From NCBI GenBank assembly GCA_000004695.1, contig CM000152.2, positions 4,736,001 through 4,800,000 of the forward strand: 64,000 nucleotides of DNA, in the 5' to 3' direction. The notes under the pieces were generated by a model. It was not told the DNA's origin. It saw nothing but the letters and a program-made list of their open reading frames with translations, and did no database searches. Below, in pieces: positions 1 to 10,827 of the stretch. The position numbers were made by a program, and so were the translations under genes. The stretch's first letter is position 1; each line of letters begins with the position of its first letter. This DNA is from Dictyostelium discoideum. Lineage: Eukaryota.

Positions 1-11
1 AAAAAAGAAAA

Positions 12-52
<41 letters not shown>

Positions 53-920
53 GAATAATAATAAGAATGGAAAAGAAGAAGAAATAGAAGAAGAAAGTAC
101 CACTTATGATGGTTATGGTTATAATTCTGATAATTCTTATGATTCTGACGATTATGATGATTATGATAATTATGATAATTATGATGATTATGGTGATTCT
201 GATGATTCTGATGATTATCTTAATTTTGCTCATGATGATGATTCTAATTATGAAAATGACAATGAAGATGAAGATCATCCTCAAGATTATAGCAATATGG
301 CAATTACAACAGCAGCAACAGTAACTGCAACAGCGACAACAACAACAGCACCAACAACAACAACAGCAACAACAGCAACAACAACAGCACCAACAGCAAC
401 AACAACGACAACTGATAATGGTAAAAGTGATAATGGTAAAGAAGATGATGATGATGGAATAATTATGATTATTTTAAATCAATCACAATTAATTGATATT
501 TTATATAATTCTAATCGTTTAGATGATATATTTAAATTCAAACGTGATTATAAATTTTCAAATAGAAATTTTTTTAGAAAGGTTGGACCACATATTCCAT
601 TATCATTGGTTGAAATTTTATTAAAAAATTCAAATTTTATCAAAATTGGTATTGATATTCAAGAATTTTTAAATTATTTAGTTTTAATTGGTAACCTTCC
701 AATTATTAAATATTTAAATTTAAATTTTAGTCATTTCTTCACAAAAAACCAAAGAACAAAGGATTTAAAGAGTTTACTTTCAACTGCCATTCGTTATGAT
801 TACCCTCAAATCGCTGAAATTCTTTTTGTTTATATAAAATTAACAAGATATGAATTCAGAAAAGAAGTTCAAACTGATTTCTCATTAGTAGATTCACTCT
901 ACTATAATAATTTGTGGTAA
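1..920 (+). CDS. 3' part of a gene that starts upstream of the window (stop at 918-920). It has a poly-Asn and Asp/Tyr-rich acidic region, a Thr/Ala-rich linker, and a conserved about 150-aa C-terminal domain.
   Basis: Frame 0 (codons at 3,6,...) is open from nt 3 to the TAA at 918. The listed ORFs 106..324 and 297..920 are pieces of or shifted from this frame. The C-terminal segment (LIDILYNSNRLDDIFK...GPHIPLSLVEILL...IKYLNLNFSHFF...YPQIAEILFVYIKLTRYEF) is clearly paralogous to the C-terminus of the 6882..9746 protein (LIQILYNSNRLDDIFK...GPHISLPFVEKLL...IKYLNLNHSHFF...HVQIAEILFVYTNLTKGEF). Confidence 0.6.
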
Positions 921-931
921 TGAATAGAATA

Positions 932-970
<39 letters not shown>

Positions 971-1134
971 AATAGAAATAAAATAAAATAAAAAGAAAAA
1001 GAAAAAAAATAAAATGTTTGTTAAAAAAGATATTTTATTTTTATTTTTTTATACAAAAATAATTGAAATTAATGACAATGATAATATCATTAATTTGCAA
1101 ATTTGTTGAAATTTTTGAGATGCAAGAGAAGTTG

Positions 1135-2530
1135 TGGTTGAATGTGAAGTTTATGATGTTGATGATGTTGAGGATGTTGAAGAAGTGGTATAATCACCAG
1201 TTGAATAACCTGAAGAGGAATAATCACCAGTTAATGTAGAATCGGAACCACAAAATGTATTATCATTATTTTTAGCATAACAATGGTCACAATATACAAC
1301 AAATGATGTATTAAAATTAAAATTCTCTTTTTCAAAGTCATCTCTGAATTATCACAAACAATTCCATTTTCAATGTTTTCAAAATTAATATTATTAATAT
1401 AAACTGTTGAATAATAAGCTTGAATAAATGCTGCACCATTATTTGCTTTTGGTTGTTTATAGGCAGTACCAATACTTGAATTGGTAATAGTGAGATTTGC
1501 AATAAACACATAAATGGCACCACCACCTAACAAAGCATTATAATTTATAAAAATTGAATTTTCAATCAATATTGGTAATTATAAAGCACCGATAGCACCA
1601 CCATTGGATTTAGCACTATTTCCAATAAAAATACAACCGATTACATTGCTTGAAGTTGAAATTTGATCTTGACTTGAGTATGAAACGAATAAAACACCAT
1701 TGACATTAGTATTATTAAAGAATTGACAGTTTTCAATATTAAATGAGTATTGTTTTGGAAGTGAGCTGTCAAATTTTAACACAGATGAAGAGTTTAAACC
1801 AATGTTTTCGGTGAATGAAGAATTTGTTAAATAAACTGTTGAATCTGTTGAAAAGACAATATCTCTTAAATTGGAATTTCCAATAAATGAACTGTTATTA
1901 ATAGAAACATAACCTTGACTGGATAATATAATCTCTTCAATATTTGAAACGTTTGAAACTTGAGTATTTTCAAATACAATAGATGTTTTTACAAAGTTGA
2001 TTAATGGAGTTTCAAATCTTACAGAAGCGTTTAAAATTGATGAATTTGAAATTATAATATTTGTGGTTATTGATGTTGATGTTGATGATGGCGGTGATAA
2101 ATAAACACCAGCTTCAATCATTGAACTAGAGGCTGAGCTGAATTATCAAATGTACTTTGATCAAATGTAAAGTATGAATTTGAGTAACCATCGACACTTA
2201 GTATTGATTGATTGAATAAATTAAAATATATTCCAGTAATTGTTACAGAGGATTGGATAATAAGATCTTGACTACTTTAACTACCTTCACTTGGTGTGGC
2301 AATTGAAAATAATGGAGAACCTTGACCAACAAAAGATACACCACCATTAGAGCTATTTAATGGAGAGATAACTATATCAAATTCATATAAATTTACAGAG
2401 TTTTCCACGGCTGGATATATCCCATCTACCAATTTTAAATTTAATTTTTGGTACATTGAAGCAATGGTTAAAGTTGGATTTTGAACTGTTGCAATTGTTT
2501 TAAAATACTCTATAGCATCATTAATTATTT
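1135..2530 (-). pseudogene. Pseudogene or fragment of a secreted beta-helix protein with Chlamydia polymorphic-membrane-protein-like repeats (GGAI motifs).
   Basis: The minus-strand translation has repeated motifs (IGNSAKSNGGAIGAL, GGGAIYVFIANLTITNSSIG, FENTQVSNVSN, INNSSFIGNSNL) typical of the PMP / pectin-lyase-like repeat family known in Dictyostelium. Coding continuity is broken by an in-frame TAA near 2276-2278 and by frame changes near 2122-2130 and 1570-1578. There is no Met or signal peptide at the 5' end, which is a TAG just upstream near 2556. The last part runs in another frame (…GSDSTLTGDYSSSGYSTGDY…TSSTS*) and ends near 1135. No intron-like A/T-rich GT..AG segments sit at the breaks. 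Confidence 0.5.
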
Positions 2531-2820
2531 TTTTTAAAAAAAAAATAAAAAAAAACTAAATTATCGTTTTTAAAACTCGCTCCAATGCCATTTTATTTTA
2601 ATTTTATTGCATTTTATTTTTTTATTATATTTTTAAAATAATTTTATATTTTCCGTGCTTACGTTATTTCCATTTTAAAATAAGTTTTACTAAGGAAAAA
2701 AAAAAAAAAAAAAACTCAATAGTGACACCAGTCACAAAAAAAAAAAAAAAATCTTTAAATAAATGATATTGAAAATGAATTATATAATAGAATTGAAAGA
2801 TATTATAATATTAAAATTAA

Positions 2821-3159
2821 ATTAGAACTAAATTCTCTGTAGATATACCAGATTTCGATCATAATTCATTTGTTTATGTTTTCGAAGGTGAAGGTAAATT
2901 CGGTCTAGAAGGATATGAAAAAGTTGTAGCTGATCAACATATTGGTGTTTTAGCGAATAAAGATAGAGTTACAATTAATGATAATGAAATTACACCAAAT
3001 AAATTAGATGCAATCGCAGGTGAAAATGGTGTTAGATTCTTATTTTTATCAGCAAAACCATTACGTGAACCAATTGTCCAACATGGTCCATTCGTTATGA
3101 ATACACAAAAAGAAATTCAACAGGCTTTTTTGATTACCAAATGGGTAGATTTTAATTAA
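2821..3159 (+). pseudogene. Orphan C-terminal fragment of a pirin (cupin-family) gene.
   Basis: Translation …VDIPDFDHNSFVYVFEGEGKFGLEGYEKVVADQHIGVLANKDRVTINDNEITPNKLDAIAGENGVRFLFLSAKPLREPIVQHGPFVMNTQKEIQQAFLITKWVDFN* matches the conserved pirin C-terminus (…FLYVLEG…RFLLIAG.PLREPV.QHGPFVMNT.EEI.QA). No upstream pirin exons lie on this strand. Upstream is the A/T-rich spacer and the minus-strand PMP pseudogene. Confidence 0.6.
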
Positions 3160-3503
3160 TCACCTTTTTTATAAAAAAAAAAAATAATAATAAAGATAAA
3201 AAAAAAAAAATTGTACTATAATTAATGTAAAGTGGTTATTTAATTTAACCCCCAATTAAACATTTATACTGTTGAATTAGAAAATTATAAAATAAAAAAT
3301 AATAAAATAAAATAAATAATAAAATCTTTTAAATTCAATGAAATTAAAACATAAAAAGAAATAATATGATTGTTATATTATTATAAATATATATATGGTT
3401 ATTAAAAAAAAAGTTTTATATTTTTATTTTAGTATTGTTTTTTATGTTTAAAAAAAAAATGTTTAGTGAATCTTTTTTTGATCGATCGAGAAAAAAAAAT
3501 TAA

Positions 3504-4253
3504 TTAAAATGGTAAGTTACCAAGAACTCTTGGTAAATGGACTGATGATTTCAATTTTAATTGTTTAGAATTTGGTTGATTTAAACAAATACTTGGTAAT
3601 TGGAAGTATGCTGAGTCAGCAGATGGGTTGTAATAGTAATAGTTTGTTAATGTATATCCACTTGGCGTATTGTTGATATTTTCAGTTGAGCAAGAGATTA
3701 ATGAACAATCTGATTTATCTACAAGGAGACCGACATTTGAAGAGTTACCTAAATCACCTGGATTTACTGAAAACATATCACATTGAACAGTACCTAATTC
3801 GAAATCACCAACATACTTTAATCCTTCAAGTGATGGAGTAGAGTATGATAATGGTTGTTGGAAACAATAATCAGTACCATTTACATTAACACTAACGTAT
3901 TGTGTACTATTACTACCGAAACCCCAGAGATTACCTTTTGTTTTTGTATTACCATTATCGAATAAAAAGTCAACATACAATTGTTGACCAACCAAATCGA
4001 TATTCATAAAACCAGATTCAAGGAAAGATGATTGTTGAATACCACTTGGAGTTGGATAATTTCCATTAAAACTTAACATAACATATGAACTTGAATAACC
4101 TGTTGGGAGTTGGCCACTTGAAGTAAAACATTGTTGTTGACCTACTTGATTTTCAATTTTTGAGTAATCAATTTTATTTGTACCCATACTAAATGATTTA
4201 CAACAATTTAATGCAACTGTCATTACTAAAATTAAAGATAATAATAATTTCAT
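3504..4253 (-). CDS. Secreted N/S/T/G-rich protein (249 aa) with a cleavable signal peptide and scattered Cys. Function unknown.
   Basis: It is a single minus-strand ORF with an N-terminal MKLLLSLILVMTVALNCC signal-peptide-like segment. Composition is non-low-complexity with many N-x-S/T sequons. A/T-rich flanks sit on both sides. Confidence 0.6.
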   Translation of the reverse strand: MKLLLSLILVMTVALNCCKSFSMGTNKIDYSKIENQVGQQQCFTSSGQLPTGYSSSYVMLSFNGNYPTPSGIQQSSFLESGFMNIDLVGQQLYVDFLFDNGNTKTKGNLWGFGSNSTQYVSVNVNGTDYCFQQPLSYSTPSLEGLKYVGDFELGTVQCDMFSVNPGDLGNSSNVGLLVDKSDCSLISCSTENINNTPSGYTLTNYYYYNPSADSAYFQLPSICLNQPNSKQLKLKSSVHLPRVLGNLPF

Positions 4254-5311
4254 TCTTTAATTTTTTTATTTATATATTTTATTTAATTTTTAAAAATTTT
4301 TATTTGTTTTATTTATTTATTTTAAATTATTTGTTTAATAAAAAAAAAAAAAAAAAAATTATTTATACCAATTTTTTTTTATGGGTATCCGATAACATTT
4401 TAAAAAATAAATTCGAAAATATTAACCAATAAATTATCCTGGAAAATGATATATTTTATTGCCTGGTCATGATGTCAAGAGGACTTGCAAAAATTGATTT
4501 ATTTGAATTATCTCATTTATTTACACAATATCGGATCAAAGTTTTTTCGAATATTTAAATAAAAACCGTAATAGAATTATTTTTTATCAAAGGAATATTT
4601 TTATGGTAAATAAAAAAAATTAAAAAGGAATGTCAGAGAACCTATCTCAGAAAAATGATTTTTTTTATGGATATTTTATAAAAAAAAAAAAATATCTCAA
4701 AATATTTTTTAAAAAAAAAAACCCAGGCAGTGATATCATAATCTTAACAAAAGATAGTTAGCCTGGTACTAAATTTATTGAAAAATAAATAAATAAAAAA
4801 AATAGAATTTTAAATGTTTATAATTATTTATTTGTAGTTGGAGAAAAAAAAAAAAAAAATAAATTAATTTAAATCATCAAAAATGTTTGTCACTCTAAAA
4901 AAATAAATAAATAAGTAAAATATAAAAAAAAAATAAAAAAAAATTAAAAAAATAAAGTTAAAACACCTTCAGTTAATTAATTAATTTTAATAATAATAAT
5001 TAAAAAAAAAAAAGACGAAAAGGACAAAAAAAAAAAAAAAAAAAAAAAATGAAAATATTTGGGTAAAAAAAAAAAAACCCAAAAATAAATTGGAATTCTG
5101 GAATATTTTTTTTTTATTTTTTATTTTATATTATTTTTATTTTTTTTTATAATTAGAATACCAGAACGTACAGGGAATTCATGAATAAGAAAATGATTTT
5201 TTATAAAGACTCATTTTTATTTTTTTTATTCATTTTAAAAAAAAAATAAAAAAAAACAAAACAAATATAAAACAAATATAAAACTAATAAAAATAACTAA
5301 TATTAAATAAA

Positions 5312-5752
5312 ATGTCAAGTGTTTCTAGAAAAGTTTCAAATGTTGCAAAAGGTTATAAAACTAAAGATGGCGCAGGTGTATCACTTTTAAGTGTTATTGG
5401 TGGACCTATCCTATCAAAATCAGTTGATCCATTCTTAATGTTAGATGCATTTAAATCAGAGAATCCAAATGATTATATTGCAGGTTTCCCATCACATCCA
5501 CATAGAGGTCAACAAACTTTAACCTATATGATAGATGGTATAATGGAGCACAAAGATAACAAAGGGAATAAAGGATTACTAAAACCTGGTATGGTTCAAA
5601 TTATGAATGCTGCAAGAGGGTATGTTTTTAATTATAATTGTTAAAAAAAAAAAAATAAAAAAAAAATAAAAATAAATAAATAAATAAAATAAAATAAATA
5701 CTAATAATTTAAAATAATAATATATAGTATTATTCACTCAGAAATGATATAA
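5312..5752 (+). pseudogene. N-terminal part of a pirin gene (exon 1 5312..5619, intron 5620..5727, exon-2 stub 5728..5752), truncated after …GIIHSEMI.
   Basis: Exon 1 encodes MSSVSRKVSNVAKGYKTKDGAGVSLLSVIGGP…DPFLMLDAFKSENPNDYIAGFPSHPHRGQQTLTYMIDGIMEHKDNKGNKGLLKPGMVQIMNAARG, which carries the pirin signature GFP.HPHRG..T.TY…G…H.D..GN.G….G..Q.M.A. The GTATGT donor is at 5620 and the ..atatAG acceptor at 5726-5727. The join gives G-IIHSEM (pirin GIxHSE motif), followed immediately by TAA at 5750-5752. The sequence then switches into the duplicated fragment described below. Confidence 0.6.
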
Positions 5753-5756
5753 AAAG

Positions 5757-6585
5757 AATCAAAACAACAACATGATAATAACCCATTTAATAAAAGCCAA
5801 CCAATAATATTATTAATTAATAATGAAAATGAAAATGAAATTCAGTTTTGGAAAGTTTTTAGAAATAAAATTATATTTAAAAATATATTTTCAAATTTCA
5901 AATATTCAAATCTATTTAATTATTCAAGATTATATTCAGTGTATGATATTATTAATGATTTTAATAATGGTATTGAAATCTTTAGAGATAAAGTGAAATC
6001 AAATAGTTTTTTAACTTTTAATATTGGTACTTGGCCTAATTTTATTGGTTTATCAACTATTTTAGAAAACATTAAAGATGAAAATGAAGAAAATCAATTT
6101 TTTTATATTCAATTAATAAATAATTATTGCAATAAATCAATTCATTTTATGGTTTTTTTCAAATCTATTAATGAATCATCAAATTTATTAGCATTGAATC
6201 ATTTCTTAATAAAAAATTAATTAAACAAAACATTCAACTTTATATTAAAATTAAAAGATTTTCAGATTTTCAATTTTTTGAATTTTTAGTAAATAATCTT
6301 AGTGGTTTAATTACTATTGAATCAATTATTATTGAAAATTTCAATATATTTAAAGAATTAAAATTAGGTCAATTAATTAATATCACTAAAACATTTTATC
6401 GTGATGAAAATTTAGTTAAATTAAAAATAAATATAAAAGTTCAAAATTAATATTGGAAGTTATTAACTATGGTTATCCTGAAATTTCTGAAATTCTTTTA
6501 GTTTATATAAAATTTACAAGTAGTGAATTTAACCAACGAACAGGAAGTCTAAATTCATTATTGAAACCACTAGCTATGGATTAAA
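5757..6585 (+). pseudogene. Degenerate, internally deleted partial duplicate of the downstream gene 6882..9746.
   Basis: Nucleotide-level similarity: 5757-5930 matches about 7190-7370 (…gataataa[t/c]ccatttaataaaag[t/c]caacc…ttttggaaagtttttagaaataaa…). ORF 5939..6220 ([18 protein letters not shown]…[26 protein letters not shown]…ESSNLLALN) matches aa about 170-260 of the 6882 protein. 6290-6400 matches the …FNIFKEFKLGELI… region. 6470-6560 (YGYPEISEILLVYIKFTSSEF) matches the C-terminal YDYPQIAEILFVYIKLT motif. The copy has multiple stops and deletions. Confidence 0.55.
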
Positions 6586-6881
6586 AAAAAAAAAATAAAA
6601 AAAAATAAAAATAAAAAAATAAATAAATTAGTTTTTTTACTATTTTAATAACAAAATATCAAACCTGGCAAAATAAAAATAGAAAAAAAAAAGAAAAAAA
6701 AAAAGATTTTTATTTAAATAAAAAAGAGTATTAAACTAAAATCTGTTTTAATAAGAAAAAATAAAAATATCCAGATTTTTTTTTCTTTTTTTTTTTCAAT
6801 TTTTTTTTTTTTTTCAATTTTTTTTTTTTTTTTTTTTTATTATTTTATACAAACATAACATTTTAAAAATAAAAAAAAAAA

Positions 6882-9739
6882 ATGAAAAAAAGAACTAGAA
6901 ATAATAATCAAGAATTTTATGATGGTAGAATTGAAAATATTAAAAAACCAAAAGAAGACCACATAATTAATAATGATAGTGATACTTTAATAGATGATGA
7001 AAATAATAATATTAAAAATTATGAAAATGAATTTAAATTATTTAAATTAATGAATAAAGAAAAGTTAGTAATTAAAAAATTACAAACGATTGCAAAAGAT
7101 AATGGATTACCATTCAGTGGTAATGAGAATGAATTGTATAATAGAATTGAACAATATTATAATATTAAAATTAATTCAGAAAAAGAAGTTAAGCAACAAC
7201 AAGATAATAATCCATTTAATAAAAGTCAACCAATATTATTAATTAAAAATGAGAATGAAATTGCATTTTGGAAAGTTTTTAGAAATAAATCGTTATTTAA
7301 AATGGTGTTCTCAAATTTCAAATTTTCAAATACATTTAATTATTCAAGATTATATTCAGTTAATAATATATTTAAGAGTTTTAGCAATGGTATTGAAATA
7401 ATTAGAGATAAAGTAAAATCAAATAGTTATTTATCATTTATAGCTATAAATGATAAGGACAATATTCAAAAATTCAATTTTAATGGTTTATCAATTATTT
7501 TTGAAAATATTAAAGATGAAAATGAAGAAAATCAGTTATTCTATAACCAATTTATAACAAACTATTGTAATAGGACAGTTCACTTTTGGAGTTTATTCGA
7601 CCACGTTATTGAATCATCAAATTTATTAGCATTGAAATCGTTGCATGGAAATGGAATGATTAAAGAAAAGGTAAAAGTTGATTTTGAAATTAATAGTTAT
7701 TCAAATTTAAAAATATTAAATTACCTAACAAAGAATTTAAGTAAACTATTTATTATTGAAACTATTCAAGTCAATGATTTTAATATATTTAAAGAATTTA
7801 AATTAGGTGAATTAATTGATTTCACTAGAGCATTACTTGATGATAAAAAATATTACAAATTATTAAAACCATTTAATAATAATAAATCATTTTCAAGAGC
7901 TACAAAAGATATTGATGATGAATTATCTTTATTTTTAGAAAATATTACAAAAAATAAATTAATTTTAAATGAAATTAAAAAATTTAAATTTACAGATAAA
8001 GAATTAAATGAAAATTTATTTAAAGTTTTAAAACCATTAACAAATTGGGATAGACATTTTTCAAAGTTAAATCATAATTATAGTAGTGACATTGATAACA
8101 ATAGTAGTATTAATAATGAAATTGAAAATGAAAAACAAAGATTATCAATAATAAAATTAAAAAATTTAGAATTATTTCAAAAAATAGTAAATAATAATGA
8201 TATTTTAAGTAAAAAATTAAAATTGGTTAGTTATGAAGTACATGAAAGTATTTTTAGTAATATTATGACAATTCAAAATGATCAAATTAAAATTGGAAAA
8301 GAAATGGAAGGTAATTTTATTGAACAGAATCAATTAATTCAAAAAATACAAGAAAAACAATTAAAAAAACAAAAAGAAAAAGAAAATAATACTCTTCAAG
8401 AATGTAAAGATGATGATTTAAATAAAAGAAATACAATTTTCAAATATATTACTATATTTTATGATTTAAATTTAATTAAAAAGAAACCAATTGAATATAG
8501 TTTAGCCTTTTTAAATGAATTTGTAGCTACAAATGAAGAATATTGTTGTTGGGATGATCAATTATTTGAATATGGTATGCCAAAAAATGAAATTTTAGTC
8601 AATGGTGTATTATCATCAAATATTAATAATTCAAAGAAAATTGAAATTGTAATGAATTCTAAATTTTTAATGGAAAATCAATTTAGAAATTTTATTTCAA
8701 CAAATTGTACTCGATCATTAATTAAAAATGTTAAATCCATTGATATGTTAGATTTCCTTTTTAAAAACTTTCAAAATCAAATATTTGCTGAAAATAATAA
8801 TAATTGGCAATATTGTAATAGTGTTGAAATTTTACAACATTATGAAAAATTAATGGAATCATTAGGTAGAAAATTCTCATATTCAGTTAATAACCCAGAA
8901 ATTCAATTCCCATTATTATTAATGGCAATTAATAATCCATTTTTATATGATGATGATGATGATGATATTCAAAAAAAAAAAAGTTTAATACTTAAAAAAA
9001 ATATAAGTTTTAATGATTTTTTATTATTAATAGAATCAAATCGTTTTAAGAAACTTGAAATGCGTAAGTCACTCACAGAATTTAATAATGACTCTATTTT
9101 AATTTCAAGATGGATTTCAGATAATTGTATAACCGGTCTTTCTTCTCTAATTGACCATGGTCGTGGTTTTAATACGTATAGTATTAAAATAGAAATTGAT
9201 GTTCAATTACCAAACTATAAAGGAAATGATGGTGATGGTGGTGATAGTAATGGAAAGGTTAAACTATTATTATACCAAAATCAATTAATTCAAATATTAT
9301 ATAATTCAAATCGTTTAGATGATATTTTTAAAATTAATAGTTTATCTGGTAAAGAGATTATTAATTTTATTAATTTCATTGGACCACATATTTCATTACC
9401 ATTCGTTGAAAAGTTATTACAATATTTAATTGATGTGAATTTAAATTTTGAAATTTATACTTTTTTAAGTGCATTGATTTCAAATGGTAATCTTTTAATA
9501 ATTAAATATTTAAATTTAAATCATAGTCATTTTTTTTCAAAAATTACAAAAGAGACCGAAGGATTTTTAGAACCAAGAGAATTAAAAAATTTACTTTCAT
9601 CTTCTGTTCTTTTTGATCATGTTCAAATAGCTGAAATACTTTTTGTTTATACAAATTTAACAAAAGGTGAATTTGAAAGGTCAACTAAACCTTCATATTC
9701 AATGATAGAATTTCTTTATTCTAATAATTTTAAATTATC

Positions 9740-9746
<7 letters not shown>
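6882..9746 (+). CDS. 954-aa protein with an N-terminal SAP-like motif and the conserved C-terminal domain shared with the gene at 1..920. Function unknown.
   Basis: It is a single long ORF. LVIKKLQTIAKDNGLPFSGNENELYNRIEQYY fits the SAP helix-loop-helix pattern (L..L.V.EL+..a...GL...G.K..L..RL). The C-terminal about 150 aa are paralogous to 1..920. There is an acidic DDDDDD tract and A/T-rich flanks. Confidence 0.7.
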
Positions 9747-9770
<24 letters not shown>

Positions 9771-9943
9771 AAAAAAATAAAAAAAAAAAAAGAGAGATTA
9801 AATTCCAAATATAAAGTCACAAAGTCATTTTACTTTATAAAGATGCACTGGTCAAAAATCCAAAACTCATTTTTTTAAATAATCAACACCTATTTTTTTA
9901 CATTTCTTATTAATTGTTTAAAAAAAAAAAAAAAAATTAAATT

Positions 9944-10000
<57 letters not shown>

Positions 10001-10208
10001 TCAAAAGAGGTCCCCAAAATTTTTTAGATATTTTCAAGGGAACCCTAAATTTGTAATCGTGAAAAATAATATTTAAAAGCTCAAGATATTTTCATTCCAA
10101 GCTTGGTTTTTTTAATTTTTTTTTTTTTTTAATTTTTTAAAAAAAGTTTTTTTTTTTTTTAATTTTTTTTTTTTTCTTAATTTTTTTTTTCAACATCAAC
10201 TAAAAAAC

Positions 10209-10755
10209 ATGAAATTAAAAAACATTTTTTTGTTATTATTTATTTATATATTAGTATCTATTAGTTCACAACAACCGCAGCAGCAGCAGCAACAACAAAA
10301 TTTTATAGAATTATTTAAACCAGTTCAATTGATATACCCAGATTCAAACCACGATAGATTAATAATTAATGAAAGTTCAATTAATCTTTTAAATTCAGTA
10401 TTGAGTGAAGATAGATTATCAGTACTTGGAGTGGTTGGTACATTTCATTCTGGTAAATCATTCTTATTAAATCAACTATTAGGTACAACTGATAGTTTTA
10501 CAGTTGGGCCAACAGTTCATCCACAAACAATTGGTATTTGGATGTGGGCATGTAGAATTAAAGATGATAATGGTAAACAACATAATCTATTATTATTAGA
10601 TACTGAAGGTTTTTATTCAAGTAATGTATCTGAAACTTATGATGCTAAAATATTTGCAATTACAACTTTATTATCTTCTCATTTAATTTATAATTCTGTT
10701 AAAATTATTGATCAATCAGCTTTAGAATATTTAGAGTAAGTTTAATTTATTTAAA

Positions 10756-10827
<72 letters not shown>

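Follow-up and report, generated by a model that had tools for sequence, protein, structure and literature searches.

How does a genome come to carry the C-terminal end of a gene upstream of its N-terminal end, on the same strand and with the middle missing? The question is raised by a 64,000-nt stretch of Dictyostelium discoideum DNA (contig CM000152.2, positions 4,736,001 to 4,800,000; hereafter the window, with positions counted from its first letter), in which two pieces of pirin coding sequence lie on either side of an ependymin-like gene. A sequence-only reading of the window had proposed that a local rearrangement, by segmental duplication plus inversion or insertion, destroyed a resident pirin gene and fused part of it to a partial duplicate of the neighbouring gene, with an assembly artefact as the alternative. 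Comparison with other Dictyostelium loci points to a different history, in which a 2.92-kb slice (2828-5750) of a tandem pirin/ependymin-like array was most probably copied into a break in what is today a pseudogene, a paralogue of the SAP-domain family. The host is split at a single point, the slice is colinear with the array, and there is no pirin at the orthologous loci of four other genomes. The parts of the rearranged locus, together with the intact neighbour to which they are compared, are as follows.

2764-2827, plus strand: fragment A, 64 nt of the SAP-domain family pseudogene (..ENELYNRIERYYNIKI..), with 87.5% identity to 7118-7181 (E=1.5e-16)
2828-3159, plus strand: pirin C-terminal piece, residues 187-295 (PF05726, E=6.8e-17)
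3504-4253, minus strand: ependymin-like gene, an intact 249-aa open reading frame (ORF) (PF25544, Ependymin_amoebozoa, E=1.3e-59)
4254-5311, no strand assigned: divergent spacer between the ependymin-like gene and pirin, a presumed promoter region of the internal-unit type
5312-5746, plus strand: pirin N-terminal piece, made up of exon 1 (5312-5619), an intron GTATGT..AG (5620-5727) and 19 nt of exon 2 (5728-5746, ..IIHSEM)
5747-5750, plus strand: filler ATAT, 4 nt, which with the next bases makes Ile-TAA (stop 5750-5752)
5751-6585, plus strand: fragment B, the remainder of the SAP-family pseudogene, of which 5751-6395 corresponds to 7180-7834 of the neighbouring gene
6882-9746, plus strand: intact SAP-domain family paralogue, 954 aa, identical to EAL66580.1 (Q54TP0, 'SAP DNA-binding domain-containing protein')

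The comparison assembly with ACTFIT_ locus tags is that of Dictyostelium discoideum GCA_054883475.1, on whose chromosome CM142509.1 the ORF at 3504-4253 (minus strand) is matched exactly; from the locus coordinates, the window corresponds to approximately 4,814,754-4,878,753 of that chromosome. Among the comparison loci, L002 is the pirin/ependymin-like array, L003 is a third pirin/ependymin-like pair, and L005-L008 are loci of other genomes linked to the gene for a guanylate-binding protein (GBP), including those of strains ACTFIR and ACTFIW (L006 and L007) and of D. cf. discoideum ACTFIY (L008); D. firmibasis was also compared. To reach the orthologous loci in these genomes, the single-copy GBP gene and the best homologue of the SAP-family pseudogene served as anchors. 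The window has a GC content of about 20% and long spacers of poly-A/T, and an unmasked self-blastn returned thousands of poly-A/T matches and three informative ones; subsequent runs were dust-masked. Three proteins of the window each have an identical counterpart in the Sanger reference of AX4, where their accessions run consecutively (EAL66579, EAL66580, and EAL66581), and the last of these is the GBP encoded downstream in the window (EAL66581.1).

What the sequence-only reading described at the pirin pieces is borne out. The N-terminus that it placed at 5312-5619 is evident in translation and as a PF02678 domain (E=1.4e-27, profile positions 13-93 of 108), with HPHRG and IIHSEM both kept; HPHRG and ..HSEM are metal-ligand motifs of pirins. 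The GTATGT..AG intron, followed by GIIHSEMI and a TAA, is present as reported, the C-terminus does lie 2.2 kb upstream on the same strand, and the middle of the protein is missing: a tblastn search of the window with the intact 295-aa pirin gave matches for residues 1-105 and 187-295 only, and residues 110-186 (77 aa) were found nowhere in the 64 kb at E<=10. Within the C-terminal piece, residues 187-288 align in one frame and residues 281-295 in another, reflecting a 1-nt deletion in a T-run at 3126-3131 (6 T, versus 7 T in the array copy) that places the last 9 codons (..FFDYQMGRF) out of frame. This deletion could be either real decay or a long-read homopolymer error. Both domains of the pirin bicupin family (PF02678 and PF05726; D. 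discoideum Q54UE9 and Q54UY3) are recognizable in the window, but unlike members of that family the locus has no single reading frame, has lost residues 110-186, carries the domains in reverse order, and has a frameshifted C-terminal piece; the C-terminal domain is neither downstream of nor in frame with the N-terminal domain. Judged by their sequences, the pirin pieces are fragments of two genes, and there is no pirin gene here.

Both pieces can be matched to an array (L002) about 655 kb upstream of the window locus on the same chromosome, whose units consist of a pirin gene on the plus strand and an ependymin-like gene on the minus strand. The order in the array is an intact 295-aa pirin (copy 1), an ependymin-like gene, a pirin with a 210-aa model (copy 2), an ependymin-like gene, a 141-aa pirin, a lyase fragment, an ependymin-like gene, a second lyase fragment, and a final ependymin-like gene. 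Window 2827-5619 aligns without a break to L002 8364-11174, at 95.6% identity with gaps and 97.8% substitution identity, and this span of the array opens 250 nt into copy 1's exon 2, takes in the ependymin-like gene and the spacer, and closes where exon 1 of copy 2 ends; for the window's intron and its stub of exon 2, the matches are in other array copies. Substitution identity is 99.1% in the pirin C-terminal part, 98.3% in the ependymin-like gene, 96.7% in the spacers, and 97.4% in exon 1, with 60 substitutions and 64 gap positions separating slice from source. Of the two copies, copy 1 is the better match for the C-terminal piece (98.8-99.1% to L002 8365-8697, against 94.9% for copy 2). The spacer of 1,058 nt that precedes the N-terminal piece, by contrast, resembles what lies in front of copy 2 (L002 9781-10866; 93.2%, or 96.7% without gaps) and reaches only 69%, over its last 400 nt, against what lies in front of copy 1. 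The two pieces are thus the ends of two neighbouring genes, and not two parts of one. Exon 1 is 97.4-98.1% identical to the array exon 1 copies.

The order of the pieces is then what an out-of-register slice would give. Copied from the tandem array, the slice would start in exon 2 of pirin copy 1, at 250 nt from the beginning of that exon, and end 19 nt into exon 2 of copy 2, taking in between these ends the 3' end of copy 1, the ependymin-like gene convergent with it, and a divergent spacer of 1.06 kb, so that the C-terminus comes to lie upstream of the N-terminus and the middle is gone; the 226 nt for the 77 absent residues would never have been copied. The lengths are consistent with this arithmetic: the array unit is estimated at 3,149 nt from the starts of copy 1 (L002 7718) and copy 2 (10867, with exon 1 aligned at 10867-11174), and the insert of 2,923 nt together with the 226 nt that encode the absent residues makes up one such unit. 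The minus-strand gene between the pieces, which the sequence-only reading had regarded as unrelated, is intact, covering PF25544 profile positions 1-171 of 171 (full length), but it is far from unrelated, being the constant partner of pirin in the repeated unit. Intact pirins persist elsewhere in the genome, as the sequence-only reading had suggested checking: one is ACTFIT_011252 (295 aa) in the array, and another is KAM9949911.1, which is AX4 Q54UY3. The AX4 counterpart of the array is EAL66854-EAL66864; a database look-up of AX4 pirin P0001 gave no record.

The sequences on either side of the slice tell the same story from the side of the host. Fragment A, which adjoins the pirin C-terminal piece on its left, was overlooked in the earlier description of the locus. 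In five paralogues (in L006, L007, and L008) A ends where B starts, each time with the same 2-nt overlap, and A and B joined would read ..AAATTAGAAAAAGAATC.., the expected empty site. Because A and B abut at one point in all five, a single host family member was split once, with 2828-5750 as the insert. Fragment B had been described as a stop-ridden copy of three separate segments of the adjacent gene; the likeness to that gene is real (74.6% over 666 nt between 5751-6395 and 7180-7834, E=5e-124), but the copy is essentially colinear, with one long block and a tail; it carries frameshifts and, near 6427, an internal deletion, and its C-terminal tail spans 6453-6585. Nor is it a recent duplicate of the neighbouring gene, to which it is only 75% identical, whereas its positional orthologue in D. 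cf. discoideum ACTFIY (L008 10164-10722) is 90% identical to fragment B (window 5873-6427); the family copy is an older paralogue. The tail matches L008 11658-12057 at 79%, and about 0.9 kb of L008 is without a counterpart in the window. With its 5' end lost, and split, frameshifted, and internally deleted, the SAP-family host is dead; it keeps only the last third of the SAP motif, in fragment A.

Both junctions lie in unique, coding-like sequence outside the poly-A/T tracts. At the left junction, the family sequence ..AAATTAGAA meets pirin CTAAATTCTCTG.. with one shared A (1 nt of microhomology). At the right junction, pirin ..CACTCAGAAATG is followed by ATAT and then by family AAAAAGAATC.., and this filler is found neither in intact pirin, where CCAAAA comes next, nor in the SAP-family sequence, which has TCAG. 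Target duplication amounts to 0-2 nt (AA), and neither junction shows element termini, a poly-A end, or spare sequence. From the single nucleotide of microhomology on the left, the 4-nt filler on the right, and the minimal target duplication, we infer that the slice was inserted at a single break in the SAP-family paralogue and joined by non-homologous or microhomology-mediated end-joining, or by templated break repair. The copy was DNA-mediated, since an intron, a spacer, and a gene on the opposite strand were all carried along.

No pirin or ependymin-like sequence was found at the GBP-linked locus of ACTFIR, ACTFIW, ACTFIY, or D. firmibasis, in each of which the exact site is either affected by a deletion or too diverged. 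In ACTFIY (L008), the order is a family gene, a 550-aa minus-strand gene, the positional orthologue of the pseudogene, a 952-aa family gene, and the GBP gene. Slice and source differ by 2.2% substitutions, less than the 4-6% flank divergence between strains, and if rates are similar the slice was probably copied after the strain lineages parted, that is, after the AX4 lineage split from the other sequenced strains.

Several observations weigh against this history. Exon 1 by itself cannot separate copy 1 from copy 2 (6 versus 8 mismatches), and copy 2 of the present-day array has neither the intron nor the start of exon 2, exon 1 running straight into ..EGKFG, so that the source would have to be an earlier or allelic form of the array. 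The host junction as it stood before the insertion is also unseen, since a separate deletion in the ACTFIY orthologue spans the site and the whole block is absent from ACTFIR and ACTFIW, and each junction with the slice is directly seen in one assembly only.

How, then, do other explanations fare? If a resident pirin had been broken by local segmental duplication with inversion or insertion, its pieces scattered, and one of them fused to a fresh duplicate of the neighbour, this would account both for pieces that are out of order and incomplete and for a family copy that abuts the N-terminal piece. We nonetheless consider it very unlikely: C-terminal piece, partner gene, and N-terminal piece stand in the order native to the join between two tandem units, with colinearity to the array along the entire slice; the host pseudogene shows a single split; the four other genomes have no pirin at the locus; and the family copy is far closer to its ACTFIY positional orthologue than to the gene that it would have been duplicated from. 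The pieces thus derive from two adjacent array copies and would have arrived as one colinear slice, and the proposed destruction of a resident gene falls away. A single inversion was rejected by reasoning, as it would set the junction between the pirin N-terminal piece and the family sequence on the opposite strand. The alternative that array reads were misjoined into this locus, which seems slightly less probable still, draws on an AT-rich, repeat-rich genome and on the single assembly in which both junctions are directly seen. However, the slice is a distinct copy, separated from the array by its own substitutions and indels, its ependymin-like protein differs from those of all array copies and equals EAL66579.2, with EAL66580 (SAP) and EAL66581 (GBP) following, and both junctions lie outside poly-A/T.

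Tandem arrays are a classic source of unit-sized circles, and a one-unit extrachromosomal circle could have been linearized inside pirin, lost 226 nt, and been captured at the SAP-family break. The insert amounts to one unit circularly permuted, and the sum of insert and missing sequence fits the unit length exactly; yet a linear slice, or templated synthesis over the unit boundary, yields the same product, the interior of the insert is plain array sequence and hence offers no recognizable circle junction, and chance alone would fairly often give an insert of less than one unit. We therefore regard re-integration of a circle as improbable, although less so than the breakage of a resident gene or a misassembly. 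Dictyostelium genomes also carry many mobile elements, and movement by transduction with such an element or by retrocopying might be considered, but we give it next to no credence: an insert wholly colinear with the array leaves no space for element termini or ORFs, an intron, the promoter spacer, and genes in both orientations have been kept, the junctions have a 4-nt filler and 0-2 nt of duplicated AA in place of a poly-A end, and there is no tRNA gene within window 1-16000, tRNA genes being the usual target of TRE elements. Taking together re-integration of a unit circle and templated break-repair copying, and noting that there are several pirin/ependymin-like loci on the same chromosome, it is conceivable, but doubtful, that the slice arose by one of these routes and that capture of array slices is a recurrent disperser of intact ependymin-like genes.

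Copying of an array slice into the broken SAP-family paralogue remains the history that we favour, and it is a known kind of event. The locus resembles duplicated (non-processed) pseudogenes formed by ectopic insertion or fragment capture at a double-strand break, with which it shares a DNA-level copy, retention of intron and intergenic sequence, arbitrary ends, 0-1 nt of microhomology, a short filler, and later decay (the C-terminal frameshift). It differs from that class in that its donor is a tandem array, one of whose unit boundaries lies within the slice, hence the circularly permuted look that mimics a 'shattered' gene, and in that it landed in another pseudogene and brought one intact gene along. 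Its likeness to the chromosome-3 pirin/ependymin-like array consists of 97.8% substitution identity and full colinearity over 2.8 kb; it departs from the array in that the window copy is shorter than one unit, lies 655 kb away, and has no neighbouring units, and in that copy 2 of the array has since lost its intron and exon 2 start.

The one undamaged gene of the slice is the ependymin-like gene at 3504-4253. Its product is identical to AX4 EAL66579.2 (DDB_G0281635); compared with array copy X1, the gene is 98.3% identical in nucleotide and 98.0% in amino acid sequence, with 8 synonymous and 5 non-synonymous codon differences, and its protein is unlike that of every array copy, yet equal to the AX4 reference protein. 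This dispersed extra copy of the ependymin-like gene, with its spacer, is likely the only functional product of the event, and the pirin stubs and the split SAP-family gene would be debris. The N-terminal stub keeps its upstream spacer, ATG, exon 1, and consensus intron, and could have at most a 110-aa truncated cupin as product; a database look-up of the 110-aa read-through ORF (5312-5644) gave no record. There is a small chance that the pirin promoter, exon 1, and intron kept here give rise to a truncated cupin specific to the strain or to a pirin-SAP chimera at the transcript level. Literature on DDB_G0281635, on Dictyostelium pirin, and on structural variation in wild isolates yielded nothing relevant.

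The array itself and its relatives show further irregularities. Copy 2 (L002 10867-11446, the 210-aa model ACTFIT_011253) has lost the intron and the first ~308 nt of exon 2, and its model borrows a small upstream ORF (MSRGLAKIDLFELSHLF..), which is present in the window too at 4472-4560. Between ependymin-like copies at L002 13437-18435, fragments of a beta-eliminating lyase (PF01212) occupy the slots where pirins are expected, and the array region seems prone to mosaic rearrangements. A third pirin/ependymin-like pair is found at L003 8286-10933 (chromosome ~3.18 Mb), with a degraded 234-aa pirin model and 79-90% identity to the window slice, and further pairs are suggested by AX4 accessions EAL67164/67165/67168 and EAL67327.

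The SAP-domain family likewise extends beyond the rearrangement, and the 6882-9746 gene is a neighbour outside it. The SAP domain of this gene scores below the Pfam cut-offs (PF18953, 23.1 bits against a cut-off of 26.3; PF02037, 17.4 bits against 23.9), and a protein search with the translated SAP-family pseudogene gave two matches only, the neighbouring 954-aa paralogue not being among them. Window 297-920 (plus strand) and sequence upstream of it form the C-terminal end of a further family member, modelled at 1,216 aa, in which a long stretch is Thr/Ala-rich and of low complexity. The family forms a tandem cluster at this locus with three or four members per strain examined, and D. firmibasis has a single candidate (624 aa).

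A second structural difference between strains encloses the slice. Two more features are needed to describe it.

1154-6538, no strand assigned: 5.4-kb block, present here (AX4 lineage) and absent from ACTFIR and ACTFIW
1052-2522, minus strand: decayed gene, modelled at 290 aa, uninterrupted at 550 aa in ACTFIY, with the first 59 codons gone

In ACTFIR and ACTFIW (L006 and L007), window 1-1153 is joined straight to 6539-10200. The block is bounded by a 10-nt imperfect direct repeat, GTGAAGTTTA (1144-1153) and GTGAATTTAA (6522-6531), beyond which its boundaries share nothing. Both strains retain the last ~34 codons of the minus-strand gene (1052-1153) and the last ~15 codons of the pseudogene, and these 3' remnants of both truncated genes mark the difference as a deletion there and not an insertion here; by its boundaries, the 5.4-kb difference is a microhomology-type deletion in ACTFIR and ACTFIW. 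Unequal crossing-over between family C-termini was considered for this indel and rejected, the boundaries being non-homologous (233 nt past one stop codon and 47 nt before the other). The minus-strand gene is colinear with its ACTFIY counterpart (blastn 87.5%), and tblastn with the 550-aa product of L008 recovers residues 60-185, 194-454, and 449-550 in frames -2, -1, and -3; its product has no Pfam match. Over window 1-14300, ACTFIR and ACTFIW differ from the AX4 lineage by 4-6% substitutions, or ~9% with indels, which seems high for conspecific strains and is about the divergence of 'D. cf. discoideum' ACTFIY at this locus.

For annotation, the consequences are direct. The sequence-only reading was right that this is not a simple gene and that it contains a chimeric pseudogene, which is a chimera of the pirin N-terminal piece and the SAP family and is modelled in the assembly as a 291-aa 'Pirin'. 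This model and the 116-aa 'Pirin_C' model at the same locus are artefacts, ORFs forced through nested pseudogenes and not real genes, and they should be flagged as such. In other respects the locus is ordinary genome debris, of value mainly for annotation and raising no new biological question. It is also a clean, datable case of how a slice taken over a tandem-repeat boundary can mimic a shattered or circularly permuted gene, and the slice insertion and the 5.4-kb deletion here are two structural polymorphisms that distinguish Dictyostelium strains.

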